DNA of 64,000 nt from Botryllus schlosseri (lineage: Eukaryota): the NCBI GenBank assembly GCA_051294905.1, contig CM119372.1:28956001-29020000 (forward strand), written 5' to 3'. Shown here one piece after another: positions 1,380 to 37,729 of this stretch (its first letter is position 1; each line of letters opens with the position of its first letter). The notes under the pieces were generated by a model, which had not been told where the DNA came from, searched no databases, and was given only the letters and a program-made list of their open reading frames with translations. The position numbers and the translations under genes are program-made.

Positions 1380-1396
1380 TCATTTTTCGGGATGAA
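1380..1396 (-). CDS. Gene A terminal coding exon: (V)HPEK-stop
   Basis: Acceptor atttcag|ttcatcccgaa is identical in the paralogue ((V)HPEA-stop at 54887-54903). Phase 1 fits the Ig exon, and the total CDS (1011 nt) is divisible by 3. Confidence 0.8.
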
Positions 1397-2599
1397 CTGA
1401 AATGAATTAAAAAGGTGATTTCGATCAAGAATAAAACCACTGGATAAATATGAAGAATCGATGGTATCTTCAATTGGAAAAGTCGAAATACATTTGAAAC
1501 TTTCTGTCTCAACGATGTGCTTTGACATGAGAGAGAGTCAACCGGCTTCTCTCGTGAGTGGGGTTGAGGAACCCCATCCCGCCGCACATAGTTTCCCTCG
1601 CCAGACATGGAATCAGGTAAGACAGCCGTAGAAAATTGAAGGGACGGCTGCGAGGCCAGACGCGTATTGCCGAGGCGACTGTCGGTTTGCTTTGGTTTAC
1701 ATTCGTTTTTCTCTAGACGAACATTGATAATGCCTTATCCGAATATTGGGCTATAACAGCTGAAGGACCGCTAAGCTTCGAAATCCACTTTAGTCACAAC
1801 GAAATACCGTTATGATAATTGGTTATATAGGGCTAGGCTACATCGTTTCGTACAGGATCGGTCTTCTCATCTCGTGGGCCACTGCTATTCTGTGACGCAA
1901 TTTGGTATCTTGCAAATTTATGTCGACCGAGAAAACTTATCCGCATTATTTACATCAAAGTAATGAAAGAATATCAAGAGCCTTGGTGATATATAGATTT
2001 TAGCGTTCAGAAATAGATGTTTCTAGGTTCATTTTCGTGAGTTACGTTTAGCATCGAGAAATTTCCACTGAGATAGGAATCTTTCACGTGGAAATTACAA
2101 GCACTTGGTAGTGATTTCTTATTGTGCTTATCTCGCCTTCGTGATCTTCATGAACACAAATCACCACACTCGAGCTGTAAGCATTACAACTCGATCGGGT
2201 GTACAGTACATGTACAGCCACAAGGTTATGCGCGGACAGGGAGTCCGACCGTTGCTAGGAACCGTAACATGGCGTATATACATCAACGGATCCGGTTGTT
2301 TCTTAAGAAAAAAATCTAGCAATACTGCCACAGTGTTCCAGGCAAAATTTGATGTAAGCATGGACGAAGCTAGGGAAATATCGATCCCGCTGTCTTGAAA
2401 AGCCCAGAGGAAGAGTGAGCCGAGCTCCCAAAGTCGGCAGCAGAGACCCAAAATTGAACGCAAGAAATTCGAGAGTGAATGGAAGTGTGGGAGTGGAAGA
2501 GCATGAAAAGTCGTCCTCGAGATAGAAAGCAAAGATTCTGAACTTTACCAAATTCATTGTCGTGGAGCACCAAGCCTGAACAGGCGATAAGCGCTACTG

Positions 2600-3310
2600 T
2601 AGGGTTACCATATTTTTGTGACACAAATTCCGGACGCTCTTTAGCGCCCACTAGGGGAGTTTAAAATGATGTATGAGCACATTGTCGATCAATAAGACGT
2701 CACACCAGCTGAGCTTTGTCTATCGACTAAAGGTGGTCGCGATCCGGTTCATGACGATATGGTTGTGTGTTGGAAGTTGTAACCAGGGCCGAAGACACAT
2801 TTTCAGCCCCCTTTCGCACAAATATACACATGATTTTGGGCCCACCGTCGGGTAATCGATGCCACTTTTGGGAGCTTACTATATGCATCGGGTAGTTAAA
2901 TGATTAGAATGAGTTATGACAATAATATTGGTTCATCCATATATTACTAAATATGTTTGATCCTCTCTCCGCTCGCATGATCAAAGTTAGCGGGGTAGAG
3001 CAGGTGGAGGATGACTTCGAAAGTGCAAGGAACGTAATTGTACATCGTTAAGTCATGTTCATGTCACAGCAGTAAGGTCATTTATCAGCCTGATGCCGGT
3101 GCGCACTGCAACACTGAGCTGTATAAACTCCGCATATCCGGTGGTTTCCTACCATTTATGGTCGCGACTCCATTTCCAATTTGCCGTGGCCCAGCTCCAA
3201 ATTTGATAAGCTGATTGATAATTGAACTTCGTCTCACATTTGCCCACACTTACTCACGGCCTATGTTGGAAACTGATTATGTTCAACATCTTCGCGAACC
3301 CCAGAATGAA
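2600..3310. mobile_element. Partial inverted copy of the 13373-14498 element
   Basis: tagggttaccatatttttgtgacacaaattccggac is the reverse complement of 14447-14498; patchy similarity continues to about 3310; the other end was not found. Confidence 0.65.
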
Positions 3311-3540
3311 GTTGCCATTGTTGCCAGCCAACCCGGTGTATAGGCTATATATGCCTGAGACGATTGCGAATTTGCATTTTCCTTGAATTTACAACGATTA
3401 TCTATCGTATCGTTAAAGGCTCGTGTTCACAAGTGAATATAATAGGATAAGTCCTGAGTGTACACAAACTTAGACTTCATGTGATCGCAAAATCGTTGAA
3501 TGTCCTGTAGTCGCCCAAATATATATAGAGATAGGCCTAC

Positions 3541-3828
3541 CTCTTATGTTGACAAAAGTCGCATAAGCTCTTGACTGGCCAATAATGTCCTTGTTAGCGG
3601 TGCATCTATACTTTGCAGAGTCGTCCTGGGTGGCGCTTTTGATAATCAAAGTTGCCTTTCCAGGTTCAATGTTTTGAAGAGGATCCATCCAAATATTGTC
3701 GGTGGGTGCGCCTTCCTGCTTTTGCCATTTGACAGTCGAAACCACAGATGAAGTACATTCTATTTTTATCGTATCGCCAACCATGTAATCCTCATCTTGG
3801 CTTGATGGTTCCAGAGCGAGAGGGAAAA
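3541..3828 (-). CDS. Gene A exon 7: immunoglobulin domain (I/C2-set-like)
   Basis: 288-nt phase 1-1 exon containing VGDTIKIEC...KWQK...ATLIIKSATQDDSAKYRC, i.e. the canonical Ig Cys, Trp and D-x-A/G-x-Y-x-C. Acceptor cacgcag, donor G|GTAGGC. Confidence 0.95.
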
Positions 3829-3924
3829 CTGCGTGGAATTGAAAACCATAAGTTTTGCAACGTAATGAAATCAATTGTAAGTCAGTGGTAGAAAGGAGCC
3901 ATCGATACCGACATACCCACATAC

Positions 3925-5514
3925 CAGGGCTGTGGAGTCGGTAATTTTACCACCGACTCTAACTCCGACTCCGACTCCACATATTTTCAATATACTGACT
4001 CCGACTCCGACTCCGACTACTGAGTCTTCAAACGTACCGACCCCGACTCCGACTCCAACAATAATACCAATTTACTTCGAAAATTATATGCCACGGTAAC
4101 GGTTAAATGACTATCATATAACCATTAAACATATGCAAACATGATTAACGATGGCATGCATAATTGTTTCATTGTAGCACAGCTCGAATTATGCACTACG
4201 CAATTAACATGAAAGTTTGCCTTTCTAAATATCCTTCCCTTCTTCATATTTGATTAACATGGATTGTCTAATATCCTAATATGCATGAATCATTCAAACA
4301 TGACTTGTATCCAATCCTGTATAATTAAAATGTAGATAAAACAATCAATGTGTTGTTCTTGTGTATGAGTCAGCAACTGATACAGAGATGTAACTTATTA
4401 ATTTTCTCATTAAACACTATGCTGAATATAACACAAACATTCTTACCACTAATAGACATTGGTCATTAATGAAATTTAGAAAGTAGTCAAATAGCATATG
4501 TCTAGTCTACATGTACTAAGTCAAGTATTCAAAGACTAGGACTTGCAGTCTTTCTTAATCACTTGTTCGACCCAAGCACCTAAGTTATACTACATATATT
4601 TTTACTTTTGTCAAGTGGGAAGAACCGTTTGGTTATATTTACATCAATCTTACAAAACCAAACGATGTCACAGTATCATGGTATAATTCCAAAAATTGCA
4701 TCAGTTTGTGACTGCATCGCGAAGATGCATATTGCGATTTTCTTCCTCTATGCAACTAAAATGCAATTCGCAAATAATGCCCAATTTTATCTATATCAGG
4801 GGTGGCAAGTCATTTCGGCCAAAGGGCCACAAGAGATGTACGAACCATTGCGCGGGCAACTTGAATGTTGATAACCTTTTTTAGTCTTCCGATAGGAGCG
4901 GACCGAATTAGGTTACATTGGAAACAAGACTTATATTACTACGCTTTAAAATTGATAACAATTATGTCATGCAACTGTGCAGTGTGCAGTTATGCCCTGA
5001 TCGCGCCAAGCGCGAATTTTTTTTAAAGGTAATGAATGAATTCTATCAATAAATATGCTACTCACATATATTGGGCTCAAGCTCATTTGGCAAGGACAGG
5101 ATTATTTGGCGTTTAGACATAGCAATATCGACGGTTGCAGTGAACATGCCTCTATCATTTTGTTGCAATTTTCTAATTTCGAGAATTACCTCGCAGGCCA
5201 CACAAAACGTTCTCGTGGGCCACATTTGGCTTGAGGGCCACGGTATGACCCCCTGATCTGCATCGCTGTTAATAACGGTGATGGATGGTACATAAATATC
5301 CTATTAAAAATCCTTTGAGAGCAATTGTTTTCATGATAAAGAAATTGGAGTCGGAATCGATTTCGGAGTCAGGGTCATTTTCACAAATTACGACTCTCAC
5401 TCCAGTCAATATTTTTCCTCGATTCCGACTACGAATCCAGCCACTATAGTTTTCACGACTCCGACTCCGACTCCATCAAGCGAAATTTAGCCAAACTCCG
5501 ACTCCACAGCCCTG
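3925..5514. mobile_element. Non-autonomous hAT element with (CCGACT)n subterminal repeats
   Basis: TIR cagggctgtggagtcgg/ccgactccacagccctg; perfect 8-bp TSD ccacatac; empty site visible in the paralogue near 55990. Confidence 0.93.
4797..5255. mobile_element. Charlie/Buster-type MITE nested in 3925-5514
   Basis: cagggg...cccctg ends, GGGCC motifs, flanks atctatat/atctgcat. Confidence 0.75.
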
Positions 5515-6126
5515 CCACATACAAGGTCAGTAACACAGAATATCAACTTTTTGAATACGTTGTGCTTATTTTCCTATATTGAGCACTCCACAGTTATATT
5601 TCATCTATCCGACAGATTTGGTCACCATAGCCCGAGTTCATATTCCCATTTCTAACTCAAATTTTATAGATTTAAAGCTGGCATATTTTGCTTTCACTTT
5701 TCGGAATTTTTGAAATACAATTTGATTACCGTATCGATTATGAGTGATATGGTCCTAGCAACCGGATCGGATGGATCGCAATATATTACGGTCCCAGAAT
5801 AAAATTTCATAATAGTACCTACAACATTGTCTATTATAGTGCGTTGATCGCGAAGATGCTTCACGAGATTTTTCAAGTTGCCAACAACGATGGACTAGTG
5901 AACTGCTGTGTCATCTCTAGCCTAATTCAGTTCTATCAATTCCCACTTCTACTTGAAGTAGTTCTCCATGCCTTGGATTCACTCCGTCAACTGCGGATGG
6001 GTCACTGTTGCCCCTCAACTAACACTTCTGCCAATGACTAGACACAGTTGTAATATGGTTTACTTTCGTATGCACCACCGAGGTGCTTGTACGATGAGGA
6101 GGCGAAGGAATCACAGTGCTATAATG

Positions 6127-7495
6127 CAGTGTTGGGATGACTCGAGTCATGACTTGACTCGAGTCAGACTCGAGTCAACTTTTTCGAATGACTTGACTTG
6201 ACTCGAGTCACTTTGCAAAAATGACTTGACTTGACTTGACTCGGCGCTTCAAAAATGTGGATTGACTCGTGACTCGGAGCAAAATTTACGAGTCAATTTC
6301 AAGTCATCAAGTAAACGGTGTCGACTAAATCAATGTATTTTGTGCATGTTCGGATTATTCACGATACGCCGTTGTGACTTGTGAGAGCAACCAGTCATTT
6401 ACTGGTTGTACGTTTCACTGATCCTACATTGTTACATCACAAATACATTGACCGCAAACGAAATGATCACAGCTTGCGTTGTCGTAGCAGCAGATTAATT
6501 TGATAGCAACGTATCGCTGTTTATTGGACGGCTCTGTTCTTACATTGCACGGTGCTCACCTTTACCAACCCTCTTGTATGGTTTAAATGGAACAAATATA
6601 TTTTATGCATTCATATCCTCACGAATGTGTATATACGGCTAGTGTATTGTACGATATCAATTTCCTCCATCTTCTCGAGGCTTCGTATTCGATCCTCTAT
6701 TTTGGCTGATAATAAGAGAATGTAGCATGTAGCTCAGAGTTATCAAACTCAACTGACGTCGCGGGTCGAATTCAAATATTCAGATCACTCGCGGGCCGCA
6801 CCAGTCAAATGATTCCAAAATATTACTAACTCTTAACTCAATATATGCGCTTTTTCGCATTCTCGGAATTAGGTGTCAATGTCAGCGATTTTCTCCTGAC
6901 GATGACTACAATCACAACTCCTCTGTCGGGTGGTTATAATGTGGCCTATGAATATACTCGAAATCTTGAAGGAATATTTATTAGTAGTATTTCTTACTAG
7001 AAATTCGAGAAATGTGTTGAATAAAATCACGCAATTTTCAACATATAGCCTACTCAGAATTTCTTCGCGGGCCGAATGAAATCATTTGGCGGGTCGTATG
7101 TTTGACACCCCTGATGTAGCTATACAGTTACTGGCATATTTTATTAGCAGTTATACGTGTGCGTGAGCGATACAACGTATTTTTGCACGTATATTTACCT
7201 TTAAATTCGTTATTTGATTCAAGATTAATGACCAATTGATCTCTTTAACACAGCTAGTAAAAGATAATGAATTTAAATGATCACTCATACTTCGAAAATT
7301 CAATTTGACTTGAATTGTGACTTGACTCGTGACTTGACTTGACTTGACTTGACTCGAGTCACCTCCAAAAAACGAGTGACTTGACTTGACTCGAGTCACC
7401 TTTGAAAATCGATTGACTTGACTTGACTCGAGTCAAAATGTGCAATGACTCGAGCTGACTCGTGACTCGAAGGTGGTGACTTGATCCCAACACTG
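6127..7495. mobile_element. Non-autonomous hAT element with GACTT/GACTCGAGTC repeats
   Basis: TIR cagtgttgggat/atcccaacactg; perfect TSD ctataatg. Confidence 0.93.
6735..7113. mobile_element. Charlie/Buster-type MITE nested in 6127-7495
   Basis: cagagttatcaaac...gtttgacacccctg; perfect TSD atgtagct; related copy at 39793-40570. Confidence 0.85.
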
Positions 7496-8753
7496 CTATA
7501 ATGTCAGTATCACAACCTTTTCTCTTCACCACATTTCGGGGTAGGGATTTGGAGCCGAAGGAAGAGGCCAGGCATGGAGCTGCTCATTACCAACGATGCG
7601 GGAACGGGAGCCCGATCTCTACGTGAAATTCAAATCGAGCTTGACAAGAAGCTGGAGGCAGTTGTTTGAAAACTAGCTCCGCCTCTAACGCATTTCATGA
7701 GATGCTATACTTTTACTATCGACCAAATTAACATAATTTTTGATAATGCACATCTTAGTTGTAAAAGTCTCATTCAGTCAAACGTCAATACTTACACACA
7801 ATTATAATTCCTAACCATAACTCAACTGAGTAGCCTACATGTAGCCATGAGAGATTACCCGGGCAGGAACCCTGTCATTGTTCTTTGTTAAACGAGAGGG
7901 GACAAATATTTATTAAGGCTGGTCCGATTTTGGATTTATGACTGTGATTTTCGGAATATATACTTTGAGGTTCTCGAATCACCATCGTTCCGTCACCTTT
8001 ATGCGATTTATCATATTTTTCTGGTTATGCAAAGGCCTATTTTAATACCTTGCCAATAGCAAGAAAGCACATATTCCGCTTTATATATATATTTTATCGA
8101 AATGGCACTTCATAAATTCTGAACGTCGACAGGATTTTTCTCAGATCGGGGATCGCGAATTACAAGCTGGGAGATAGATCGCATCCATCAGTATGGCGAA
8201 TCTTTGGACTTGGACTGGAGTCCGACCTGTACATTGTAGAACTGTGATTGGCACACTTTCAATGCTACAAAGCAAGACACAAGTGTATCTAGAGTGTATA
8301 AATAAGGACGCTATGATTGGTATATAATTAGCTTGTTTCAGAAACGAGCAGTCGAGAAAGAATTTGGATTACATTTTTTAAATCACCAATTAGAACGTTT
8401 TGCCCGGAATTGGATTGGAGTTAGATCCGCACCCAGTGTGAAATTGGATTTGGTCTGTAACTCGAAATTTCTAATCATTTTCAATTTTGATGAAGCATTC
8501 CAAATATATGTTCAGTATTATCATGTTTGGACTTGGAATATTGAACCAGATAATCCCTTGCTATGTGATCCTCCGAGTCATCGTTAACTGCCGATTTCGG
8601 GGACGTAGACAATGATATTGCTTGAGTCCGCATAAATACATTTGATGCTAATTCTCCACAAAAATTCAAAAAAAATAAATCAGAAAGTATTACATAAAAT
8701 TTAGCACAAGCGGTATTTCGGAACTGAACTGTTAGCAAAAAGCAATCTCCTAC

Positions 8754-8845
8754 CATCTTCACAGACGTAACTAGTCAATCCTTCGCATTTGTCGGCGTTT
8801 AAACAGTTGTGCGTTCCATCTACCCAATAGCCAACTTTGGAATTC
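8754..8845 (-). CDS. Gene A exon 6: C-terminal part of compact CTLD-like domain 2
   Basis: Acceptor tttcag, donor G|GTAGGA: NSKVGYWVDGTHNCLNADKCEGLTSYVCED. A near-identical 92-nt exon lies at 61513-61604. Confidence 0.92.
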
Positions 8846-9134
8846 CTGAAATTCAATAACAAACCAGTCATGCATCCTCCTTCATGGAATGCTATCACCG
8901 TCGTCGAAGCCGTATCAATTATACTGATGCTGGGCACAAGAGAATAGCTTATATTGAGCAACAGCAACAATATTTTAAATTGAAATCAATTTCAGCATTT
9001 CAAAATGCCTTACTAGGCGTTCCTATGAAAACCTCAAATCAGGTCGCGGGCCACAAAATAGGAACTCGTGGGCATCATGCGGCCCGTGGGCCTCGTGCGG
9101 CCCGTGGACCTCGTGTTGGTAACCCCAGTTATAC

Positions 9135-9825
9135 GCCTATTGTTGTAGACGGCCTATTGTCTGCTCCTTATCAATCATAAACGGTCAAATGAAACAAATA
9201 GCTTCACAGGATGTTATGCTCAACGTACCGCAATATCTTATCTGAAGCAAGACTGCGTAGGAATTGGTTCTTATATAAAGAAGCGCATGATGAAAAATTG
9301 TGATGTAGACACCATTGTCAGAATGAAGCAACGCGGTGTGTCGCCAGCAGTGGACGCACAATTTCAGTTTTGCCAGCCAACAGCTGGTGCTGTTGAACGT
9401 TCTTTCTCCGTTCTTGGCGAGCTACTTAGTAAGGACAGATAGGCTACTTTCTACCCGATAATGCAGGAAAGTATCTTTCATTGTACAACAAGCAATTTTA
9501 TTGATTCCTACCATAATGCGTGATATAACCACTGGAATTCTTCATAGGTCCAGATTTCGTTAAAATAGAGTTTTCACATGTCAAAATTTGTCAGTTTTGA
9601 AGTAAGAAAAGTTTTTTCAGGCTCAACTACTTCGTATAAGGACAGACAATACCAACCAGAAATGAAGATAAGTAGAACAATTCAACCATTATGTGCAAAA
9701 ACACCTAATTTACATACATGCGGGCAAAATTACGTCAAAATTGATTTTTTAAAGATCAAAAATTGTCAAAATTTTGATTTTTTAGATCAAAGTCTTCCGT
9801 TTTTTAAGTAAAAAACTTCGCCCTA
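9135..9825 (+). mobile_element. Truncated copy of the 31760-32638 family, with a hAT dimerisation-domain remnant
   Basis: Translates as AQFQFCQPTAGAVERSFSVLGELLSKDR (ERxFS motif); ends aaaaacttcgcccta; collinear with 31930-32638. Left boundary approximate. Confidence 0.75.
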
Positions 9826-10185
9826 CTAATGAGATGCCGTTTCATCGCCGCTTGTTGGTTTAACATTGTGTCAATGAAAACATTGCTTTGACTTTACAAA
9901 ATCTATTGCTACTCCATTGCTTATACAATTTATTGTCTCCTGTGAATTGTTTGTCCATATATGTTGCATTTTGCGATCGTTTCATTGAATCTATACAGAG
10001 CGTGGCGCAAATAACCATCATCCGTTGAAATCGCCACTGTTTCCATAATAATAATCTATCTGTCATGTTCAGATGAATCTTCGGACATGTCCAGGTATAT
10101 TGCTTCATTTTTGAAATTACACCCCGCATTTAATCTTCATTTGGCATACCGCGATATCTGTTTAGATTTGTTTGTTTTTGCTTAC

Positions 10186-10360
10186 GGATTCCTGCTGTTC
10201 TCGATTTTCGTGATTACTTCGTCCGAGTCCACCACAGCAAGTCTTAACCCGACCTTCTTGCAACTGCTTCGCGCCAACTCTTGAGTGCCTTTACCGCCGT
10301 CAAAATTTCTGATTGAGAAGAGCCTGTTATCGATCGAACTTCTGCTAGCTGTAGATGGTT
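10186..10360 (-). CDS. Gene A exon 5: N-terminal part of compact CTLD-like domain 2
   Basis: Acceptor catttag, donor CC|GTAAGC: (E)PSTASRSSIDNRLFSIRNFDGGKGTQELARSSCKKVGLRLAVVDSDEVITKIENSRN(P). Has A-x3-C-x3-G-x-RLA-x-V-x-S; conserved in the paralogue. Confidence 0.9.
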
Positions 10361-10627
10361 CTAAATGTGAAATTGGGTAACATTGACGCAATCAGTCGCA
10401 GGAACGAGCAATCGAGATTCTCACGTATAATCACACATATTATTGAATTATATTGGCTATTGTGAATTCATATCCGCTTCGGCTGTTGATTATATACTGT
10501 AGCCTACTCTACCACATACTATGCCAAAACTGGAACTAGGTTCAGCCATTTCCATACCACTTACCTTTTTCGTGAACGAGGTTGGATCAGGTCAAATCTA
10601 CCCGAGAATGATATCTTGATGACATTT

Positions 10628-11172
10628 TAGGGTGGTAACCAAGTCATAAGGCTCCGAGTCACAAGTCAATCTCACTTTTATAGTTTTGACTCGAGTCAAG
10701 TCGAGTCATTTTCAATTCATCACCGATTCAAGTCCGAGTCATGGTTTTATGACTCGAGTCCTAGGCCAGTCATTGTGTTGACTGCTCAGTTTCCAGCTAA
10801 AGTCTTGTTAAACACACTTTTTATAACTCTGTTTGGTGATATCGAACCTACGGCATTTATAATATACTTATTTTCCTCATTTTTAGCAGTTTTTGGTCGC
10901 ATTTTCAAGTGCCACTACCAATAGACGAAATCGCAATAGTGGGGTTACTTTACTGTTTTTCGAAATTATAGTGAAATATTGGTCTTGGTCGTCCGAGTCT
11001 CGAGTCATGCGCAATGACTCGAGTCCAAGTCGAGTCAATACACTGATTGACTCGAGTCGAGTCGAGTGATTTCCGCATTTGGAGAATATGACACGAGTCA
11101 AGTCGAGTCATCAGAAAATCGTGACTCGAGTCAGACTCGAGTCGAGTCATGACTCGAGTCATTACAACCCTA
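10628..11172. mobile_element. MITE with GACTCGAGTC repeats
   Basis: tagggtggtaa...ttacaacccta ends; no clean TSD. Confidence 0.7.
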
Positions 11173-11543
11173 CATTCAGTTAAGCATATACATTTGTGGA
11201 AAAGAATTCGGAGCTTATCAATGTTGCTAGTAGCCAGAAAAAATGCAATAACCAATAAATGTTCATTATCTTCCTATGAAATTCTGGTAATTTGACTTGA
11301 CAGTTAAATTAAAGTATTATCACATACAGACATGTTACATTAAAAGTAACGCTAAGTTATCGACTATCACTGATAATAATTAATTCATTGCGAATGTTAC
11401 AGATATTTGTAAATTTACGAAATTGTGTCAGCGCACTTCTGCAGTTTCTACCCTTTTATTTCGCGTTATAAGGATGTTTTGAAGGAAGCAGTTTATTGCT
11501 TCAATGCAAACAAATCGATTTGTCCCAGGCAAATATCTTTTAC

Positions 11544-11662
11544 CTTGGAAGCAAATGTAAGGCAGACGTTCCCCGCAATCGATATCATTCCACCAGTTCA
11601 TTGGCCACTCTAAGGATCCGCAATCCTCGTTTCTACGATGGTTGTCCGGCTGACCCGGTCCC
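11544..11662 (-). CDS. Gene A exon 4: C-terminal part of C-type lectin domain 1 (QPD and WND motifs)
   Basis: Acceptor ttgcag, donor G|GTAAAA: GPGQPDNHRRNEDCGSLEWPMNWWNDIDCGERLPYICFQ. The first G completes the TGG split from exon 3. Confidence 0.95.
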
Positions 11663-13372
11663 CTGCAACGGAATAACACATTATAGACATATTTCTGCTG
11701 ATCTAGCCTAGCCAAACTCTGGAGCAGCAATCTCAAAAACGGATCCGGCCCGCTAAGCAATGCTAAGTAATTATAAAATATATATGACTTTTTATCGGGC
11801 ACATATAACACACATAGCAGTGACCACCTTTACCGTTCTTGGCTTTTGTAAGACACATGCTGCAGCCTGTAACCGAGGGGTCGGCAACCTTTCCTGTGCA
11901 GCGTGCCATAATATGTTAATTTCAAAAATATTACCAATTGACGTGCCAAAGTTTTTAGATTTGTCATATTTATCGTTTCAAGCAATAAGGAATTCTATCA
12001 ACCCCTTATCTGAAGCTGGCAAGTGATTCACAAAGTATGGGTCGCGAAAGGTATAAATTCTGGTCGCTACCGCACCAGACCTAATATTTCCTGTAGGCTA
12101 CGTAGGCCTAATATTTGCTTATTTTACTGCAAAAAAATCTATTCGCGCCAACATTCATATTCTGTGGTGGCTTTTGCAGTTTCCTAATCCACTATGTTCG
12201 GTACCATAGCCAATAAGTGACACGCGCACCAACGTTGTAATGACTGCGGTATGCATACCGTCATTACAACGTTGGTGCGCATGTCTCGATCATGAATAAT
12301 ATGCCTACCCGCGTATCGTGGTTTGATGACACAGTACGATTTTCTGCAAAGCTCTAAAGATAGCCGTAAAGATTGCCGCTGCACAAAATATATTTTAATC
12401 GCTTTACACGTACCAGACGAAACTATGGAATAAAATCTCCTTTCGTGAAACGAACACGACTTCAAATTCCCATTTCGTCGCTGGGCTCATTATTTTTCTC
12501 TGTGGGTATCATTTGCACCGAGCCGCTCAGACATAGGACTATTCGGCGCCGATCATTTCGACGCCTAGACATATCAATATCGAACGTTTACGCCAACATG
12601 CAACGGCTATTTAATTTGAAGGTTTTGCAGCATCCAATCAGTTTTGGAACGCACTTCACGAAGTCGCATGTTTCCCGAAAAGTTATGTCTTAGTATCTTC
12701 TACTTAAAAATACACCCAGGCCCGAAATGCCGGTTTCTATTATTCGCCCCGCCCTAGACTAATGCATCACAACGGTCACATACGATATTAGCACGCCGTT
12801 CTCTCATAATTGCTAATACGATTCGATTCATTGCGGTCTAAGCATATTTTGTGTTTTTTCGATGTATTGTTTGGGGGTGGGGATATCCACATCAAAAGCA
12901 ATCCGGTTCCAATAAATCGTACGAAGCGTGGAGAAAATTTTCAAGAAAACTAGAGCCTGCTCCAACTACTGCGGTGCTTTGCAACCTGTGGGATGGTAGG
13001 CACAGTGCGGATGACAAAAATTTCAGGGTGGATGACAAGCCTGGTGCGGATGAAAATACTGATTGAGTGCGGATTAAAATTGTCCGTTTTTCTCATCATT
13101 TTCTGACGAGGAATAATTCAAATAGACCTAAAGGAAATTCGAGTCTGTGGCTCCCTTATCACTAATCGTAGCTTTTACAATCACTTTGTCTCGTACCAGC
13201 CAGGTCATGGTATGGTATTGTATGGTAGTATGGTATGGTATGGAATATGGAAGAGTGCAAGTATGGTATGGTATGGCAATTTCACAGGTATGGTATGGAA
13301 TGTTCTTTCCATGCTTCCATAGTTTCTCCATACTTTGGCAGTTTTGCCAGAAGCATGACAATGATCCTACTT

Positions 13373-24019: not shown

Positions 24020-26005
24020 CAGTGGCGGCTCGTCCTATAGGGCAACTGGGGCATTGCCCCACCTAAAATTCTGTTCAATAACAGTTCTTTACCATTTAGA
24101 GACGCACAGCAATCTATATATACCGAAATCACTGCGAAAATCGTATTCTTCTTGTCCTTTCGCTTGTAAATGCCCATATATAGCGAAGTCTGCGAAAATC
24201 GAATTCTCTTCCGTGTTTTCGCTTTGCGAATGCCTAGCCGGGGCATGCCCCGGTAGCGCTCATAACAAGCTTTCACTGTCTATTCTCTCAAAGCCGCGCA
24301 CAATAAAGAAACAGTGATTTACTCTCTCCTATTCAAAAATTACCGAGCAACCGGGGCAACATAGCCTAGTCGCCCTTAAGGTGTGATGTAACAATCGTAT
24401 CTATATCTGAACTCGGTTACCGTCATATGCGTTTAGTCGACCTTTGCTGGTATAGGTCGATTTTGATGGTGTTTCACACCATGATAATTCTTGAAACTTG
24501 GTATGTCATGTCGTGATGGTAGTATTTAACACTGTCCCAAGTTACAGGGTTTCCACTTAAAGTTTAGGGTAGTAATTCCGTTTCCGAAGTTGAGTGTGTG
24601 CTGACCGTCATGTATCGCAAACAGATTTTACTCAAAAGCCGGTATTGGTATCCATTGATTTTGACGATGTTCCATACCGAGATCGGTCATAACATTTCGT
24701 ACGGTAAGTCTTAATGTTACTATCGAACGCTGTACCAAGTTTCAAGTTTGTCACTGTACTGTGTTTGTGGTAATTTCGTTTCCTAAGTCGAGTGAGAGCT
24801 GACTCGTCATTTATCGCAAACATATTTTACGCAAAGCCGGTATTGGTCTCCATTGATTTTAACGATGCTCCTTACCTAGATCCGTCATGAGCTTTTGCAT
24901 GGTATGTCTTGATTTTAGTATCGAACGCTGTGCCTAGTCTCAAGGTTGGCACTCAATGATTAGGGCAGCAATTTCGTTATTAAGGTCGAGTATGGTAGAG
25001 ATGTGCGCTGATCTGACACTTAGCCCACCTAACGCATTGCGGATTTCACGCAAAAGCCGGTGTATCTGTGTTAACGCTAACTGTGTTCCATACTGAGATA
25101 GGTGATGAGATGATGATATCATGAAACAGTTTACTAACATCCTCGGTTTACATTCAAATATTTACTTTTATTTTATATTCTCCAATGTCAATTTCACCGT
25201 GAAATTGTGGCCTTCAGGCCATTTGCTTACAATTACAACCCCTGTCAAGCGCGATAGCTGTTTCGTTTTCGATGGCGGCTAAGAGCTGATCGCTTGATCA
25301 GCCTATTCCTCAGTAAATTTTACGCAAAATTCGGTGTTGGTCTGTTCGTATTAATTTTGACAGTGTGCCATACCGAAAACGGTCATGAGGCTATTTCTCG
25401 ATGATTTCATGTAACAGTGTACCAAGTTTTCGGCTTTCATCCACGTATTTATTCGATAATATATTTTCCCAAGGCGATTTTGCAGCAGACATATAGACAC
25501 TATAGACCGTAAGCCGTATGTGTCGTGTGACAGTCTCCAGCCTCAAGGCCAAAATCTCCTATGCTGTACCGGGACCGAATTTCCGAGGCCGCTATCCGTA
25601 GTTCTTCAGAATTATGTTTTGGATTCAATATGACATGTCCAATCTATGAGATAACAATTGCGTATGTGTCCGAACTCGTTGACCTTTCCAGTTAGGCTTA
25701 CGCAATCTCTCGAGTTATAGTCATTTCCATTGCTGCAGATAATTAGTCAGGTGTAGTGCGAACATGAACCGTGTCGAATCTTTGTTCCGTACGCCGTTTA
25801 CGCAGTTACCACACATCAAGTCACAGCTCACCGGGCCGCGGCACATACGTTAAAATCACTGTTGTCGGGAAGTTCGTGTTACCGTACGTAGTCCGTACCA
25901 CCAAGTTACTTGTTTACGTTGGAAAACGCCATTGTGACGTCATCTTGATAAAAAGTCGCTTGCAGCCCTTGCCCCACCACCCGATATTGTCACGAGCCGC
26001 CACTG
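24020..26005 (-). mobile_element. Tip100-like element, copy 2 (inverted)
   Basis: Same 14-bp TIRs; TSD tgaaatat. Confidence 0.95.
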
Positions 26006-26946
26006 TGAAATATCATCTCGATTACCACAATTGGCACGCGTGCCAGGGGTTGCCGATCCCTGCTGTAACGTATCAGCCCTAGACTTGATCCGGGATTTTA
26101 TAGAGCAGTGCTCTTCAACCGGGGTGGTCGTACACCCTAGGGTGTACCAGAATTCGCAAAGGGTGTACCACTCGGATGGGGTGTACAGGGGTGTACCAGA
26201 TCCAAATTACAATGAGCCGATGGCTAGCTATCACAAATGCCAGTTTATAGGTCAGTACAGACAGGTTGACGCACAGGTTAACGAGCAATATGGTACAATG
26301 TTATCTCAAGTGTAATACTGTACACCGCTTGATTGTGATGTCATAAGCAAATATTTCTTTTATTCATTTAGCCGTCGGCAATAGACCAATGGTTCCGTTT
26401 GGTGTTGTAAAGTATGCAGTTAACAAACATGTGTTCAGCTAGTCATTAGTATTTTATTGATTTGTGAGGAAACCGCCGCGATAGCTCAGACTTTTTGAAT
26501 CCGTGCTTCCTACCCGACGCTAATAAATACCGCAATGCACATAAATGAAGTGACGTAGCTAGCCAGGGTCGAAACAGCTTCCATATTGAAATCGAAACCC
26601 TTTTGTTTTAAAATGCCAATTGTATGTCCAATCTTTCGCCATACATTTGCAATTTAGTATTTTGTTATAAGTGATGTAAATTAGCGACAATAGACTGTGT
26701 ATAGCGGCATACGATCTGAGGTTACTGACATCTCTTGCAGCCCATGTGCTACTATCGACTGTGTGTGGTGTGTGGCAGGCCTGATGCGCAGTAGGCTGGT
26801 GCGCCTGCTATCATCGCTGATCTGAATTACCGCTTCTGCAGCAGTAGCTTTAACTACTCTCCCCCCAATACTGTTACATTTAGGTTGAATATCGTTCGTT
26901 ATATCATGCTGTTTTTGCTCTGACACGAAATAAATTCCAATTTGCG

Positions 26947-30360: not shown

Positions 30361-30465
30361 CAATTTTGATGAACCACTGGGATGTCGTCATTCCATTTCC
30401 ACCAGCCTTCATGTGAGTAATCAGTCATGCCGATGAAGGGGCTCCAATACCCATAATCACCGGTA
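30361..30465 (-). CDS. Gene A exon 3: middle of C-type lectin domain 1
   Basis: Acceptor ttttcag, donor TG|GTGAGC, phase 2-2: TGDYGYWSPFIGMTDYSHEGWWKWNDDIPVVHQN(W), matching the WIGL-x-D...EG-x-W-x-W...NW motif. Confidence 0.92.
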
Positions 30466-31759
30466 CTGAAAATATAAACAAATATAAACTGATCGCCAAT
30501 TTAACACTTCCGTAAGCCGTCCAATGAGTCTTGATGTCGCCCGAAGACGTCTCAACTCGGAGACGACTTCTTCGTGTAAGCATGTCTATTGAATATAACA
30601 ATTATTACAGAATTTACCATACGTCCTTCTTTAGTAGGATTTGTCCTCCATTTCCAGTGAATTGAAAATGTCCTTCGAGGACCCCTAAATGTCCTCCTTT
30701 TTGGCAATTCGTCTTTAATCGTAAATCGTAAAAAGTGGGTAATTCGGGAGTCTAATAAAAGTGATGACCTTTTTTTAGTCAACACAACAGTATTTCCAGT
30801 AAATATTTCAAAATCGGTTGTTTTCGATTTCGGTAAACTAACTTTTTTCGATTTTAAAAAGTGTCCTCCTTTCCGGATTCCAAAATATGGTAACCCTGAT
30901 TATTAGATATAGTCTTGAATCGACAATGGCCGGAAGCTCAGTATTCTAAGGTATAGACAGTATTTTATAACTGTTAGCAAATCTTGTTGCTCTCCATCAA
31001 ATCTTGCGGACCGAAAACTAGCTCCAATTCATTGCCTAAATAATACAACCACAGGAAATTTCTATCAGGTCACTGACACCAAACATTCTGTGATTATGAC
31101 AACACCACTCTGAAAAAAGACGTGGGGAGGATGAGGCAAAACTTGATATGTGTATGAATTAGCATTGCGCCATCACGTTACGTCTATGCTACTCTTCACG
31201 TTGGTGTTCGAAACGAATCTTTGATAAATGTTCGTTTTCACTTGAACTCGAACTTTATAGGGGTTCGCACTATCCCTAACATATTTTCCGTCGATATTGC
31301 GAAAGGCGAATCCCACCATTTCCTATTCCATCTACACTTCCGATGATCGTAATCTCCTAATAGAGACTTGGAATCCTTTCAATTAAAAATTAGGACTTTG
31401 AAATGGTTCCTTATTCCACAAAACATGCAATCAGAAATTTGATTCTGACTCGTGAATCAGTCGACTCTTACCCCATTTCACTCATTAATGATATTGCGAC
31501 TCCAAATCTTACTTAGAACGCCGAGTCCGACTCAAAATGCAAGCTATACTTTATTGTTACCACCCGATTGGGGGTCTGGAAAATAATTTCGTTGCGACTA
31601 TTACAACCGAATTTTTATTTCATGAATCAGCGACTGCCTCCGAACAAACATGCGCCTGCGACTCTGACTCCTGAGTCCTGATTCCTTCAAACGAATTTAG
31701 CAACTCTGACACCAACAAATTGAACAGAGCCACCTCAACTCTGATTCGTTAGTGATCAC

Positions 31760-32638
31760 CAGGGCGGTTTTTTTTGACATGTCAAAATTTGTCAAAATTT
31801 TGTCAAAATTGTAGCGCTAGGTCAAAATTTGTCAAAATTTTTCATAAAATTAAAAAAATTTTGACGTCTGCATTTTGTTTGTATCGTAGATTTAGCACTG
31901 TCGGTGAACTTATAATTTGAAATTTTAACGCTTTTAGCCTATTTTATAGGCCTACCGTTGTAAACGGCTAATCGTCTGCTCATTGTGAATCATAAACGAT
32001 AAAAAAAAAACAAATAATAGGTCGACATGGTGTTATGGTCAACGTACCGCAATATCCTAACTGAAGAAAGACTTCTTGTGCATTGCATCATTCTTATATT
32101 AAGAAGCGCATGATGAAAAATTGTGATGTAGACAACATTGGCAGAATGAAGCATCACGGTGTGTCACCAGCACCAGCAGTGTACGCACAACTTGAGTGTT
32201 GTCGGCCAACAACTGCTGCTGTAGAACGTCCTTGACAAGCTTCTTAGTAAGGACGTGCACTTTCTACCCAAGAATGTAGGAAAGCATCTCTCGTTGTACT
32301 ACAAAATATTTTAATTATTTCTACCATAATACATATTGTAACCACTGGAATTCTTCATCGGGCCAGATTTCGTTAAAAAATTGTTATTTTCATGTAAAAA
32401 CATGCTTGTTTTTAAGCCAAAAACGTTTTTTCAGGCCAAACTACTTCGTTAGGACAGTCAGTTCAAACCAGAAATGAAGATAAGTGGTGCAATTTTAACA
32501 TAATGTGGGAAAACACCTAATTTGCATACCTTAGGTCAAAATTTGGTCAAAATTCAGTTTTTTTAGGTCAAAAAAAGTCAAAATTTTGATTTTTTAGGTA
32601 AAAATTTTCTTTTTTTTAGGTAAAAAAAAACCGCCCTA
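31760..32638 (+). mobile_element. hAT deletion derivative (GTCAAAATTT repeats) with a dimerisation-domain remnant
   Basis: cagggcggtttttttt...aaaaaaaaccgcccta; TSD gtgatcac; internal YAQLECCRPTTAAVER. Confidence 0.9.
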
Positions 32639-33685
32639 GTGATCACCAATATTTCGACTCCCGACTTCGACACGTGACTCTTGTTTCCATGCCCTGATTG
32701 ACAGGGCACACAGACATATATTCCAAATCTATAGAGGTAAAAGCGTGAGGAAAAGTCGTCACCACAATATGCAAGGTCTTATTGCGGAACAAAATTTGGC
32801 CCCGAATATGAAGGAAGTTACCGAAGTTTAAATATTTAAAATATATAAATAGAACCTACGCTTACTACCTTCACTTGAGCATCTACAAGCGATCTTAGCC
32901 AATGACTATTCATAACCGTCATAGAAAGTGTGACAGCTATCTGGTGATGCTAGTCATACTACAAAATATATTTGACGTCCTCTTCATAATGCATTTCTGA
33001 TAGATTTGTATTCACGAAACACATTATCCCTCGAATGATCCCTGTTGCATGACCGAATGCTTTCAAGTCATGTGAACGAGCTTCTATAAAACACAAACCG
33101 TTTATTGCCAACAAGTTGCCGGTAAAGCTGTCATGATATGACAGCTGTTCTTAAAGTATGGGTCGCGAATTCTATAATTTTGGGTCGCGACCACACCAGA
33201 GATATCATTTGATGCACGCAATATTTTCTGAATCTCCTGCAAAAATATTCTTCACGTTTCGCGCGATCTTCTGTGGGTGCTTTGATCGTTTTCTAGCCTA
33301 ACGTGTTTGGTGCCATAGCCAATAACTGCACAAAAGGTAATTGTTTGGTCATTATGGCTTGATCATAAAAATATGCCCACCTCTGTATCATACAAGTCAC
33401 TTTGTTGTCATTGTAAGGTTTGTCTGACGATGGGTTTGTCTGGAAACCTCTAAAATTGTCGCTACTCAATTCCTGATATGTAGGCCTACCAGGTCAAACT
33501 AAAATAATTATACGCGATTTCGTGGTAACAAATATAAGACATGACTGGTGATACTAAGCACCTACGGTGAGAAGCGCCAATTGAAAGCTATCACTGTTTG
33601 CTTGGAGGAGTGAGAGAGACACTTCAAAAGAATATGTCGTCCTCGTGAATTGCATATCAGTGTAGGAAGGGAAGTATAAACTTAC

Positions 33686-33848
33686 TAGTCGGCAGCACCT
33701 AACATCAGGTCAGCAATTTCATTGTCAATATGATAGCTCGTGATGTAAACCAAATTCTTCCAGCCCTTGTCCTTGCAGCTCTGTTCTCCATACCCGTAGG
33801 AAAGATAACTACCCCAGTATAATCCATATAGATTACCAGTTGTAGCAC
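33686..33848 (-). CDS. Gene A exon 2: N-terminal part of C-type lectin domain 1
   Basis: Acceptor tctctag, donor TA|GTAAGT, 163 nt open: ATTGNLYGLYWGSYLSYGYGEQSCKDKGWKNLVYITSYHIDNEIADLMLGAAD. Contains the C-x3-G-x3-L-x2-I-x-S CTLD pattern. Confidence 0.88.
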
Positions 33849-35446
33849 CTAGAGACCAGTAGGTGTAATCATCCGCTGGAATGTTAATGCAGCATTACCT
33901 TGCGTCGCGTTCAGAATTATTAATTTCCTAATTTCCCAGCGAATCGAAATCGGGGAGCAAATATATCTCGATACATATGTATAGCGCAATAAACGTGAAT
34001 CTGGAACGCGCTGCATCAAACCTTTTTCAACTGAGTACCCCTTACGAATTATTTGCATGTATATGACATACCCCTTAGAAATAATGATGTGTATAGTGTG
34101 CGCAATTGAAAGACAAGTACTCTTTCTCGCATCATTCCACTGCGATAGATGAGCTGGACGCTACTTCAGGAGTAAATCTGTTTTTGAAGTGGAGGCGAAG
34201 CGAAAAAGACTCCCCTCACATTTGTCGACACAGTTGGAGCTCCATAAACTATAGCCTGCTCAGTGCTCATCGCAGGCTACATGAGCAATACACTGAAGAA
34301 TGCAATAGCGCTAATCATGTATCCTTCATCAAAAGCAAATGAAACTGGTTCTCATAAGAATTTATTCGAGATCTACAGTAGGCTAGGCTGCGTAGTTACT
34401 CTCATCAGAGTGGCAGTAAAGAAACAGAAATTCACTACGGATGATGAACATGGGGCGAGTAACGTTAGACGGCAATGTAAACATATGCTGTATTGAACCT
34501 TAATAAACGCTGCATTTGTTGGTCTTAATCTTAAGTCTCGATTGTCGCATATTTCCTAAAGTCGCTGTTCTTGAAAATAATCCAGTGCCTGAAAAAGGAC
34601 GTCGCACATGTACGTCCAGTTTGAGAGCCCCTGTTATAGTGTATAGTAGAAGTGGGATGGATTAGGAATTGAAAAAGAAAATTAGAAAAAAATAAATTTA
34701 ACCGTGTTAGATTAGCGTCTAATTGGGATATGCCATTCTGGCTGAGCCGGATTACGATTTTACATGCCCTAACTCTTTTGTTGAGTTTTCGTGGGAGTTT
34801 TCAGGAAAGTCGACTGTATACCAAATGCATATTAAACATCTAGCATTTAGGTAATAAATTGATAATTATATTTAGAAATGGCAAATTTCATTTTGTTAGT
34901 TTCTAGACATATATGTAGAAGTGGTAAAAAAAAATTCTGCTTGATGTGAATTTAGTAATTTTGCTAAACTGAATTTTTATTTCGATTACGATATGGAATT
35001 GTGAATACATAGAATTTACCTCCTTTCCAACTGAATAGGTTTACAGATATGGACTTCGATTTGGCATGATGAAATATCTATTCATTATTTTGATTTTGAA
35101 TTTGAAGCTAGCATGTACACGGAATTTAATTTTAACATAATAAATCAGCCCTTAGAGTGCAGACACACGCATTGATGACCCAGTGCAGCATGTTGCCGCG
35201 AGATAAAGATATCACGATGCTAAAATATCTATTAGAGAGTGGAGAGTATAGCTTCTGGTTATGTGTGGTACCGGGTCTGTTGTCCTTGCTGTTGATAGTT
35301 TTAATGGTGAGCCACCATCTAACGTTGATTTTATATCAGACCGATGTAATCTTTTGAAGATTTCCTAGCTGCCGACTTATAGGGTGGTGCAATTTATTAC
35401 AAAGCTACAGTACGTATGATGAATGGATCGCGATCAGCAGACCTAA

Positions 35447-37318
35447 CAGTGGCGGCTCGTGACAATATCGGGCGGTGGGGCAAGGGCTGCAAGCGACTTT
35501 TCATCAAGATGACGTCACAATGGCGTTTTCCAACGTAAACAAGTAACTTGGTGGTACGGTAACACGAACTTCCCGACAACAGTGATTTTAACGTATGTGT
35601 CGCGAGAGGTCTGCTGGTGAGCAGTGACTTGAAGTGTGGTAACTGCGTAAACGGCGTACGGAACAAAGATTCGACAAGGTTCATGTTCGCACTATACCTG
35701 ACTAATTATCTGCAGAAATGGAAATGACTATAACTCGAGAGATTGCGTAATCCTAACTGGAAAGGTCAACGAGTTTGGACACATACGCAATTGTTATCTC
35801 ATAGATTGGGCCTGCCATATTGAATACAAAACATCATTCTGAAGAACTACGGATAGCAGCCTCGGAAATTCGGTCCCGGTACAGCATAGGAGATTTTGGC
35901 CTTGAGGCTGGTGACTGTCGCACGACACATACGGCCTACGAATAAATACGTGGATGAAAGCCTTAAACTTGGTACACTGTTACATGACATTATCGAGAAG
36001 TGGCCTCATGGCCCTTTTCGGTATGGTACACCGTCAAAATTAATGCGAACAGACCAACACCGAATTTTGCGTAAAATTTACTGAGGAATAGGCTGATCAA
36101 GTGATCAGCTGTTAGCCGCCATCGAAAACGAAATAACTATCGCGCTTGACAGGGGGGTTGTAAGCAAATGGCTTGAAGGCCACAATTTCACGGTGAAATT
36201 GACATTGGAGAATATAATATCAAAGTAAATATTTGAATGCAAACTGAGAATGATATCATCATCTCAGTTAACGTTACCGCAGATACACCGGCTTTTGCGT
36301 GAAATCCGCAATGTGTTGTAGGCTAAAGTGTCAGATCGAAGCACATCTTTACCACACTCGACCTTGATAACGAAATTACTGCCCTAATCATTGAGTGTCA
36401 ACCTTGAGACTTGGCACAGCGTTCGATACTAAAATCAAGACATACCGTGCAAAAGCTTATGACGGATCTAGGTAAGGAGCATCGTTAAAATCAATAGAGA
36501 CCAATACCGGCTTTGCGTATAATCTGTTAGCGATAAATGACTAGTCAGCTCTCACTCGAATTAGGAAACCAAATTACCACTAACACAGTTCAGTGACAAA
36601 CTTAAAACTTGGTACAGCGTTCGATACTAACTTTAAGACTTACCGTGCCAAATGTCATAACCGATCTCGGTATTGAACATCGTCTAAACCAATGGATACC
36701 AATACCGGCTTTTGAGTAAAATCTGTTTGCGATACATGACGGATCAGCACACACTCAACTTCGGAAACGGAATTACTACCCTAAACTTTAAGTAAAAACC
36801 CTGAAACTTGGGGCAGTGTTCAATACCACCATCACGACATGACATAACAAGTTTCAAGAGTTTTCATGGTGTGAAACCCCATTAAAATCGACCTATACCA
36901 GCAAAGGTCGACTAAACGCAGATGACGGTAACAGAGTTCAGCTATAGATACGATTGTTACATCACACCTTAAGGGCACAGAGCTATCGTGCCCCGGTTGC
37001 TCGGTAATTTTATGAATAGGAGAGAGTAAATCACCGTTTCTTTATTGTGAGAATAGACAGTGAAAGCTTGCTATGAGCGCTACCGGGGCAAGCCCCGGCT
37101 AGGCATTCGCAAAGCGAAAACACAGAAGAGAATTCGATTTTCGCAGAGACTTCGCTATATATGGGCATTTACAAGCGAAAGGACAAGAAGTATACGATAT
37201 TCGCTGTGATTTCGGTTTATATAGATAGGTGTGCGTCTATAAATGGTGAAGAATTGTTATTGAACAGAATTTTAGGTGGGGCAATGCCCCAGTTGCCCTA
37301 TAGGACGAGCCGCCACTG
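35447..37318 (+). mobile_element. Tip100-like element, copy 3
   Basis: Same TIRs; TSD agacctaa. Confidence 0.95.
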
Positions 37319-37419
37319 AGACCTAATATAGTTTAAGAAAATTCAAGGGAAATCTGTCAGACTCAAACCCGCGACCAATGAGTGCTGCAGCGCTGGAACT
37401 GTACTTGTCACCACGATTC

Positions 37420-37520
37420 CAGGGCTGGCGAGATAGAGTAGTGGCACATTCCACAGCTTCAACACAAATGGGTTGCTGGTTCGAGTCCGATCAAGGTCGA
37501 GTCCGATCAAGGTCGACTCC
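37420..37520 (+). mobile_element. Possible tRNA-derived SINE head fragment
   Basis: A-box-like tggcgagatag, B-box-like ggttcgagtcc, then a tandemly duplicated gtccgatcaaggtcga. Confidence 0.45.
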
Positions 37521-37677
37521 AAAATCCCTATCCAAGTTTTGGAGATTCATCTATAGGCTTCTCCTCGTCATGTCATGTTAATGACCTAATGACCAATACG
37601 GACTATAGTAGTCGACAAACACCATGAATGCCACAAAACAACAAACAACAACCACGATTCAAGAAAACAATACATAC

Positions 37678-37729
37678 CTTGGGCGAAGTTGACACCGAAG
37701 AGTATAGCTGCAATTCGTATCACTATCAT
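37678..37729 (-). CDS. Gene A coding exon 1: start codon and signal peptide
   Basis: MIVIRIAAILFGVNFAQ(G): basic residue, hydrophobic core and small-residue cleavage region. Donor G|GTATGT, phase 1, matches the start of exon 2. Confidence 0.85.

Follow-up and report, generated by a model that had tools for sequence, protein, structure and literature searches.

The question raised by this locus was whether eight dispersed exons on one strand form a single gene, and what role its product would play. Splice reconstruction in the 64-kb window, i.e., the whole stretch of DNA that was analysed, joined eight minus-strand coding exons into 1011 nt encoding 336 aa and a stop codon (Table 1). GT-AG borders were recomputed at all seven introns of the spliced model, and the exon phases were 1, 2, 2, 1, 2, 1 and 1; the eight-exon, 336-aa gene of the original prediction was therefore upheld. 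The protein contains 10 cysteines, at positions 42, 121, 136 and 144, at 180, 219, 225 and 233, and at 260 and 311.

Table 1. Positions in the window of the exons of the gene and of its tandem paralog.
Feature	Position	Strand	Content
Exon 1	37678..37729	-	Predicted signal peptide; 17 codons + 1 nt, phase 1
Exon 2	33686..33848	-	N-terminal third of CTLD 1: helix 1 with Cys42, helix 2
Exon 3	30361..30465	-	CTLD 1 middle part: FIG strand, D88/E92, W-x-W
Exon 4	11544..11662	-	Predicted sugar/Ca site of CTLD 1: QPD, E, WND; Cys121, 136, 144
Exon 5	10186..10360	-	Domain 2 first part, putative shortened CTLD-like fold; Cys180
Exon 6	8754..8845	-	Domain 2 second part; Cys219, 225, 233; no QPD/EPN/WND
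Exon 7	3541..3828	-	I-set-type Ig domain; Cys260, Cys311; phase 1-1
Exon 8, coding part	1380..1396	-	VHPEK-stop
Paralog B, exons 4-8	54887..62613	-	62613-62498, about 62034-61861, 61604-61513, 55932-55645, 54903-54887

The two ends of the protein were studied by hydropathy and by enumeration of candidate exons. Over the whole 336-aa protein, the 19-residue hydropathy was highest (1.72) at the N-terminus, which supports the proposed signal peptide as a prediction. Because this value never exceeded 0.69 past residue 10, it may be concluded that there is no transmembrane helix, in agreement with the soluble end proposed earlier. The opposite case, a membrane exon following the Ig exon, was also considered; no hydrophobic phase-1 candidate was found in 1-3540, downstream of exon 7. 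In the interval 33849-54300, 32 phase-1 candidates running from ATG to GT were open; five passed a hydrophobicity filter, and exon 1 was the only one of these with an AG/GT donor. Among the four phase 1-to-2 candidates listed for 30500-37600, exon 2 alone showed a CTLD-like Cys/Gly pattern. It sits inside a 69-aa stop-to-stop frame. Exon 6 would be 28 aa longer if an alternative in-frame acceptor, at 8929, were used; the short form is the only version kept in the tandem paralog, paralog B, whose acceptor lies at the short position. A Pfam scan of 69 longer frames in the window revealed no further host gene (a zf-TAZ match, below the cutoff, was set aside), and an Rfam scan gave 0 matches.

Transcription was studied by mapping RNA reads over the stretch with exons 4-8; exons 1-3 and the junction 30361/11662 lay outside it. 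Exon bins were covered in two of the four RNA runs, X15 and X1, and in neither X19 nor X4; the X4 reads at the locus came from repeats only. RNA depth was observed on exon 4 (in X15 and X1) and on exon 5. Ten bins had no depth in either X19 or X4; among them, the X15 depth was 0.78-3.68 in the four with exons and 0-0.02 in the six others; the exon depth in X15 was about 3-7-fold in 1,934 million letters. Runs X1-X11 contributed small shares. In X1, a contig covered exactly exon 7 (3541-3828) with four differences, and the depth of 2.96 in bin 1102-1502 was that given by the contig's leftover 132 nt at depth 8.98 (2.956). Since this arithmetic matches, the tail of the contig would lie on the stop exon, i.e., exon 7 would be joined to exon 8. 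Low transcription of exons 4, 5, 7 and 8 was shown by these data.

It is very unlikely that the gene model is partly wrong, with exons 1-3 belonging to another copy, the longer exon 6 acceptor in use, or a membrane isoform extending past the window start. Such an error would be favoured by intron 3, which is 18.7 kb long and rich in transposons and whose junction was excluded from the RNA mapping, by the absence of every predicted splice junction from the 15 joints listed (93 further joints were present), by the mere 3.5 kb visible downstream of exon 7, and by the summed depth in X1, which was about 25 on exons 4-5 against about 9 on exons 7-8. However, X15 had no such excess, and the contig arithmetic points to the exon 7-exon 8 join. 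Moreover, exons 2-4 supply three successive CTLD thirds in the correct phases, no similar exon pattern that could replace exon 3 was found anywhere in intron 3, and the stop exon, which is followed by AATAAA at 1245, is kept in paralog B.

Paralog B, which was absent from the original prediction, adjoins the gene on its upstream side, and its exons 1-3 would fall past the window end. It has Lectin_C and Ig Pfam matches and the same stop exon (15 of 17 nt identical); its exon 5, when ended at the strong donor, is shorter by one base. Across exons 4-8, the copies share 156 of 211 residues, and in exon 6, 82 of 92 nt are identical. The dN/dS between them was 0.29 over 211 codons (bootstrap 0.18-0.44). 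Judging from these comparisons, the two copies are evidently under purifying selection, i.e., constraint rather than diversification.

The C-type lectin nature of domain 1 (exons 2-4) was most apparent in exon 4, which alone matched Pfam Lectin_C (E 1.5e-5, 26.1 bits, cutoff 22.6) over profile positions 73-105 of 107, the exons being scanned singly and not as a joined domain. Exons 2 (at E<=1) and 3 gave no Pfam match when scanned alone. All 18 PDB matches of exon 4 were C-type lectin domains, as were all nine matches of exon 3 at E<=1, which were weak (the best was collectin placenta 1, E 0.037). Domain 1 carries Cys42, 121, 136 and 144 and the site-2 motifs QPD, E and WND, and its exon 4 part is kept in paralog B. 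The proposal of a canonical four-Cys CTLD with QPD/WND is thus borne out by the Lectin_C match and the motifs. By alignment, D88 and E92 presumably form the auxiliary Ca site. The four-Cys CTLD, QPD, downstream E and WND are the same as in galactose-type QPD/WND lectins (PF00059; MRC2/Endo180, langerin, aggrecan and collectin placenta 1 in the PDB; clam MCL3), and family knowledge would predict Ca2+-dependent binding at this site with a preference for Gal/GalNAc. Clam MCL3, with QPD and WND, binds Gal/GalNAc glycans in a Ca-dependent manner (PMC12842671). The earlier galactose-type assignment stands as regards the presence of QPD and WND; in invertebrates, however, the motifs give no more than a rough indication of specificity: the rule has exceptions, and QPD is no reliable guide to the sugar bound (PMC12842671).

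In domain 2 (exons 5-6), a CTLD-like helix motif is accompanied by four conserved cysteines, with only five residues between Cys219 and Cys225. The dN/dS of this domain between the copies was 0.24 over 80 codons (bootstrap 0.11-0.51). In the ESM Atlas, 20 of 30 matches of exon 5 fell in clusters with minority Lectin_C members, with scores of 0.89-0.91 and 155-161 shared features against a usual level of 170. Neither exon 5 nor exon 6 had a Pfam match, and no CTLD was found among the 12 PDB matches of exon 5. The score of the alignment of domain 1 with domain 2 was reached by 439 and 1031 of 2000 shuffles and was not significant. An AlphaFold model of exon 5 from a two-sequence alignment contained helices only (pLDDT 60), and the sugar/Ca motifs QPD/EPN and WND were absent from domain 2 of both copies. 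Because a Pfam match, significant likeness to domain 1, an informative fold and a sugar motif are all missing, the "lectin-lectin" description given previously was too strong; what remains of it is the helix motif, the cysteines and the Lectin_C clusters, so that a shortened C-type lectin fold may be proposed for domain 2 as a lead only.

Exon 7 matched Pfam Ig_3 (E 1e-8, 35.9 bits) and I-set (E 4e-8, 33.5 bits, cutoff 23.7), whereas its V-set score of 22.2 bits was below the cutoff of 26. The B- and F-strand cysteines, the C-strand Trp and D-x-A-x-Y-x-C were all present. In a low-confidence AlphaFold model from the two-sequence alignment (pLDDT 56), Ig folds were the top structure matches, none at E<=0.001. 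Therefore, the expected C-terminal Ig domain was confirmed and is of the I-set type by Pfam. Considering the Lectin_C and Ig Pfam matches, the PDB matches to CTLDs only, the constrained paralog and the RNA depth on the exons, it may be concluded that the eight-exon gene is real, above chance, and that it is an animal gene with weak transcription.

The architecture of the protein was compared with that of BSCLT, which was reportedly described by Pancer et al. in 1997 and is said to be about 333 aa long. BSCLT of Botryllus schlosseri is soluble, with an N-terminal CTLD and a C-terminal intermediate-type Ig domain (PMC4944128, PMC7916673), and it has been credited with being the first soluble lectin to carry an Ig domain (PMC7916673). 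The predicted protein is likewise soluble, with the CTLD first and the I-set-type Ig last, so the likeness noted earlier holds at the level of architecture. However, the accessible passages of these accounts describe one CTLD and one Ig and mention no middle domain, whereas the 336-aa protein has domain 2. Most likely, the gene belongs to the BSCLT type and comes from an ascidian resembling Botryllus; it may be BSCLT itself, a paralog of it or a case of convergence. Word-based protein searches, which are weak evidence, gave no candidate with exon 4, 29 candidates but no match with exon 7 among longer proteins, and eight candidates but no match with the two-copy Ig alignment. HMMER with exon 5 over 1.84 billion representatives returned one protein only, P0001, which was dismissed as an artefact of repeats (singleton cluster; nine stretches, each of <=0.8 bits). 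None of 285 pattern matches in metagenome contigs was confirmed. Since the word-based and HMMER searches gave no BSCLT-like protein, near-identity to BSCLT appears weakly disfavoured, provided that BSCLT is in the searched collections. No description of a CTLD-CTLD-Ig ascidian protein was found in the open-access literature (subscription papers and supplements being outside the scope), and the accessible parts of PMC10433773, PMC514892, PMC12212465 and PMC3269628 do not mention this protein. Few openly accessible papers on BSCLT were found under that name. The soluble lectin-then-Ig design is already known from BSCLT (1997) and is not new; to it the locus adds an exon structure, a tandem duplicate, transcription evidence and a constrained middle domain, and therefore the 1997 idea can be tested by expression and glycan assays. 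This is of use to tunicate immunologists, although unsurprising, since fusions of Ig and lectin domains are found repeatedly among molluscs, crustaceans and chordates.

With a probability of about one half, the 336-aa protein plays a soluble bridge or opsonin-like role. It would be secreted, as family knowledge suggests; domain 1 would bind galactose-type sugars via a calcium ion, and domain 2, as a CTLD fold without the long sugar-binding loop, would be a spacer or a surface for self-association. The Ig domain would probably dock on a host cell, and microbes or particles coated with sugar would thereby be held for phagocytes. An opsonin role is ascribed to most ascidian lectins (PMC5465252), and in crayfish PcLec3 the Ig domain determines cell binding, while phagocytosis is promoted only by the full-length protein (PMC4944128). 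PcLec3 and the snail CREPs and BgSel have one Ig and one CTLD, as in the BSCLT-type design (PMC4944128); they belong to other phyla, no middle domain is reported for them in the accessible text, and the likeness would be one of analogy. In these proteins, as in VCBPs, the Ig comes first, whereas here it is last, the reverse of the Ig-before-lectin order of CREPs and FREPs (VIgL). Besides these reversed precedents, the constraint on the copies in place of diversification, the unreliability of QPD for specificity and the failure of domain 2 in direct tests argue against a bridging opsonin. Expression was low and confined to two of four runs of unspecified tissue and condition, unlike that of an abundant plasma opsonin. 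Multivalency is not evident, since, by their pattern, the ten cysteines all form intradomain pairs, and neither collagen nor an obvious coiled coil was found.

A tentative alternative is a secreted matrix or developmental factor comparable to TC14 and lecticans, whose lectin would bind galactosylated self glycans, in the tunic, in the bud matrix or on cell surfaces, and whose adhesion-type Ig would link cells or matrix. The nearest PDB matches of exon 7 were adhesion receptors (Dscam, CEA, DCC, Robo, contactin), and low, sample-dependent expression and purifying selection between the copies would suit such a factor. In addition, the Ca-binding tunicate lectin TC14-3 acts as a cytostatic agent during budding (PMC3293724), and lecticans combine Ig and CTLD in the matrix (PMC4944128). 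However, the I-set likeness is generic, its best E of 6e-8 being summed over several domains. The EGF, CCP and glycosaminoglycan regions of lecticans are also absent from the 336-aa protein.

The VCBPs of Ciona and amphioxus, which are secreted and opsonic, couple Ig with a carbohydrate-binding domain (PMC5465252, PMC7916673), a pairing also predicted for the 336-aa protein; they bind bacteria via the Ig domains and mucus via the carbohydrate-binding C-terminal domain (PMC5465252). A similar effector in gut or pharyngeal mucus, with the lectin tethered to mucus glycans and the Ig binding or sorting microbes, is unlikely, although patchy expression across runs would suit an organ-restricted gene. 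VCBPs have two V-type domains followed by a chitin-binding domain, whereas here a single I-set-like Ig, with a V-set score below the cutoff, stands last, after the CTLDs, in reversed order, and no scanned exon had a chitin-binding match. Identity with FcoR/fester was rejected, since the transmembrane domains and the tyrosine motifs of FcoR proteins (PMC11507803) are both lacking in the 336-aa protein.

It is doubtful that the two copies represent a tandem ascidian family of antibody-like adaptors, in which the lectin would read foreign or allogeneic glycans, the loop-less CTLD fold would dimerise or bind protein, and the Ig would act in an Fc-like manner for a phagocyte receptor. If true, BSCLT would gain a third domain that had gone unnoticed, as well as a mechanism and a gene structure.

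At the position two past QPD, an aromatic residue is common in the galactose receptors of vertebrates. In both copies, this position is occupied by histidine.

Rebuilding gene A, the lectin-immunoglobulin (Ig) gene, from its coordinates gave a coding sequence of 336 codons plus stop in eight minus-strand exons. All seven introns (3829, 3220, 18698, 1183, 1340, 4925 and 2144 nt) were of the GT-AG type with phases 1,2,2,1,2,1,1, which bore out the exon model of the original prediction. Exon 1 was the only one of five hydrophobic candidates (out of 32 candidates) with an AG/GT donor, and no exon-3-like pattern was found within intron 3. A second in-frame acceptor of exon 6 lay upstream at 8929, and its use would add 28 residues. 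The predicted 336-aa sequence contained ten cysteines and no N-glycosylation sequon. Its sole hydrophobic stretch was the N-terminus, and no hydrophobic phase-1 exon candidate was present downstream of exon 7 (window 1-3540). The predicted soluble end was upheld. AATAAA was found at 1245, downstream of the stop exon. An acceptor-like site was seen at 37751-37757 (minus strand), approximately 20 nt before the start codon. The transcript may begin with a non-coding exon or carry a trans-spliced leader.

Coordinates of gene A, its tandem copy and repeated elements in the window
Feature	Position	Strand	Remarks
Gene A coding exons 1-8	37729-37678, 33848-33686, 30465-30361, 11662-11544, 10360-10186, 8845-8754, 3828-3541, 1396-1380	minus	rebuilt from coordinates
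Paralog B, exons 4-8	62613-54887	minus	upstream of gene A
Reverse-transcriptase frame (PF00078, E 3.7e-6) and GIY-YIG frame (PF01541, E 3e-4), broken	15496-16830	plus	below Pfam cutoffs; inside intron 3
Repeat of ~1.5-2 kb, three copies, 82-95% identity	17258-18759, 24019-26006, 35446-37319		introns 3 and 1
542-bp inverted repeats, 97% identity	46141-46682, 48041-48580		enclose ~2.4 kb between gene A and paralog B

Exon 4 matched Pfam Lectin_C over the cutoff, and its 18 PDB matches were all C-type lectin domains, as were all nine of the matches of exon 3, each of them weak. Because of these PDB matches, exons 2-4 were assigned to a single four-cysteine C-type lectin domain (CTLD) with QPD, E and WND (domain 1), in agreement with the four-Cys CTLD proposed earlier. 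The proposed Ig domain (domain 3) was likewise recovered: exon 7 matched Pfam Ig_3 and I-set, and its PDB matches, to 22 sequences, were adhesion-type Ig domains (Dscam, CEA, DCC, Robo, contactin), with which an ESM Atlas search agreed. The low-confidence structure predicted for exon 7 returned Ig folds, none matching at E<=0.001. Exons 2, 3, 5 and 6, scanned singly, gave no Pfam match at E<=1.

Evidence on the compact CTLD-like second domain of the original prediction was divided. In its favor were the four cysteines of domain 2 (residues 147-235), conserved across gene A and paralog B; a helix motif resembling the start of a CTLD; and the ESM Atlas, where 20 of 30 matches (scores 0.89-0.91) fell in clusters with a minority of Lectin_C carriers (24% and 11% in the clusters listed). 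Against it were the Pfam scan; the 12 PDB matches of exon 5, among which CTLDs were absent; the alignment to domain 1, not significant, with a score attained by 439 of 2000 shuffles; and the all-helical structure predicted for exon 5 alone (pLDDT 60). Domain 2 contained no QPD, EPN or WND motif. Our best guess is a shortened, non-sugar-binding CTLD fold. The boldest reading, in which a loop-less CTLD serves as the hinge of an antibody-like adaptor family, is considered doubtful.

Paralog B, the tandem copy, ended in VHPEA-stop and shared 156 identical residues with gene A over 211 aligned codons (dN 0.176, dS 0.614, dN/dS 0.29, bootstrap 0.18-0.44); for domain 2, dN/dS was 0.24 over 80 codons (0.11-0.51). 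This comparison excluded the final seven codons of exon 5 because an A-run of paralog B (~61861-61880, minus strand) was one base short there. With the strong donor, this results in a frameshift, and with a weaker donor four bases on, the frame is kept; the missing base may reflect an assembly error, a recent pseudogene or use of the further donor. Four kilobases from this exon, near-identical stretches (56948-57761 and 57863-58766) flanked a 100-N gap, likely a false duplication from error-prone reads. The left copy had 91 deleted bases versus 1, and therefore the assembly is error-prone around there. In exon 6 of paralog B, the short acceptor was kept and the longer one was not. Exon 6 was 89% identical between the copies (8754-8845 vs 61513-61604), and exons 4, 5 and 7 were 75-77% identical; stronger constraint or gene conversion may underlie this.

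Four sequencing runs (X1, X4, X15 and X19) were mapped at 90% likeness on 300-12300, a stretch downstream of exons 1-3. Ten of 30 bins had no coverage in either X19 or X4 and were regarded as repeat-free; these two runs gave no signal on gene A exons in this stretch. The X15 depth (mate columns summed) was 1.27, 3.68, 2.53 and 0.78 in the repeat-free bins of exons 8, 7, 5 and 4, respectively, and 0 to 0.02 in the six repeat-free bins without exons; the exon 6 bin was confounded by a repeat. X1 consisted of contigs, some pieces of which were intronic, and its RNA status was guessed. A 616-nt X1 contig (depth 8.98) covered exactly 3541-3828 (exon 7) with 4 differences, leaving 196 letters on one side (before) and 132 on the other (after). 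Because the depth of the exon 8 bin (2.96) equaled the share of the remaining 132 nt (132 x 8.98 / 401 = 2.956), this contig appears to be spliced from exon 7 to the stop exon. The 15 joints listed, with a further 93 beyond the listing, included no predicted junction. That the gene A model is partly wrong is regarded as improbable. The summed X1 depth was ~25 on exons 4-5 (10186-11662) versus ~9 on exons 7-8 (1265-3828), an excess not seen in X15. An allele, a closely related paralog or a shorter isoform could account for it. Separately, ~35 bases at 2394-2429 drew only partial alignments, from over 1,300 reads in each of the raw RNA runs; these reads had loose ends to either side and likely come from an abundant transcript elsewhere.

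Word-based protein searches (exons 4 and 7 and the two-copy Ig alignment) and metagenome contigs yielded no homologue. A single HMMER match was rejected as a repeat artefact. The predicted likeness to BSCLT, a Botryllus lectin, held: in the part of its description available, BSCLT is also soluble, with an N-terminal CTLD and a C-terminal intermediate-type Ig domain. The gene A product may be BSCLT (about 333 aa), a paralog or a look-alike; that the protein searches did not return BSCLT argues weakly against near-identity, provided that the collections include it. The open-access listings and passages searched described neither the middle domain nor the exon structure nor the tandem copy. The protein differed from both VCBPs and CREPs in domain type and order, and a VCBP-like mucus effector (PMC5465252) is an unlikely reading.

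The observation of gene A was confirmed, and its interpretation is partly supported. The gene, domains 1 and 3, the soluble end, constraint and low expression are directly supported. From family knowledge, the protein would be secreted via a signal peptide, and domain 1 would bind sugar through a Ca2+ bridge at QPD/WND, whose preference is usually of the galactose type, with exceptions in invertebrates (PMC12842671). By analogy with crayfish PcLec3 (PMC4944128), the Ig domain would bind a host cell and, with the lectin on sugar, form a soluble bridge for phagocytosis; this reading is given a probability of roughly 0.5. A bulk plasma opsonin is disfavored because expression was low, an oligomerisation domain was not evident and signs of diversification were absent. 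A matrix or budding factor like TC14-3 (PMC3293724) is a less likely alternative to the phagocytic bridge.

The broken frames in intron 3 are likely the remnant of a Penelope-like retroelement. The three-copy repeat gave no Pfam match in the frames scanned. The element bounded by inverted repeats (46141-48580) is possibly a DNA transposon.
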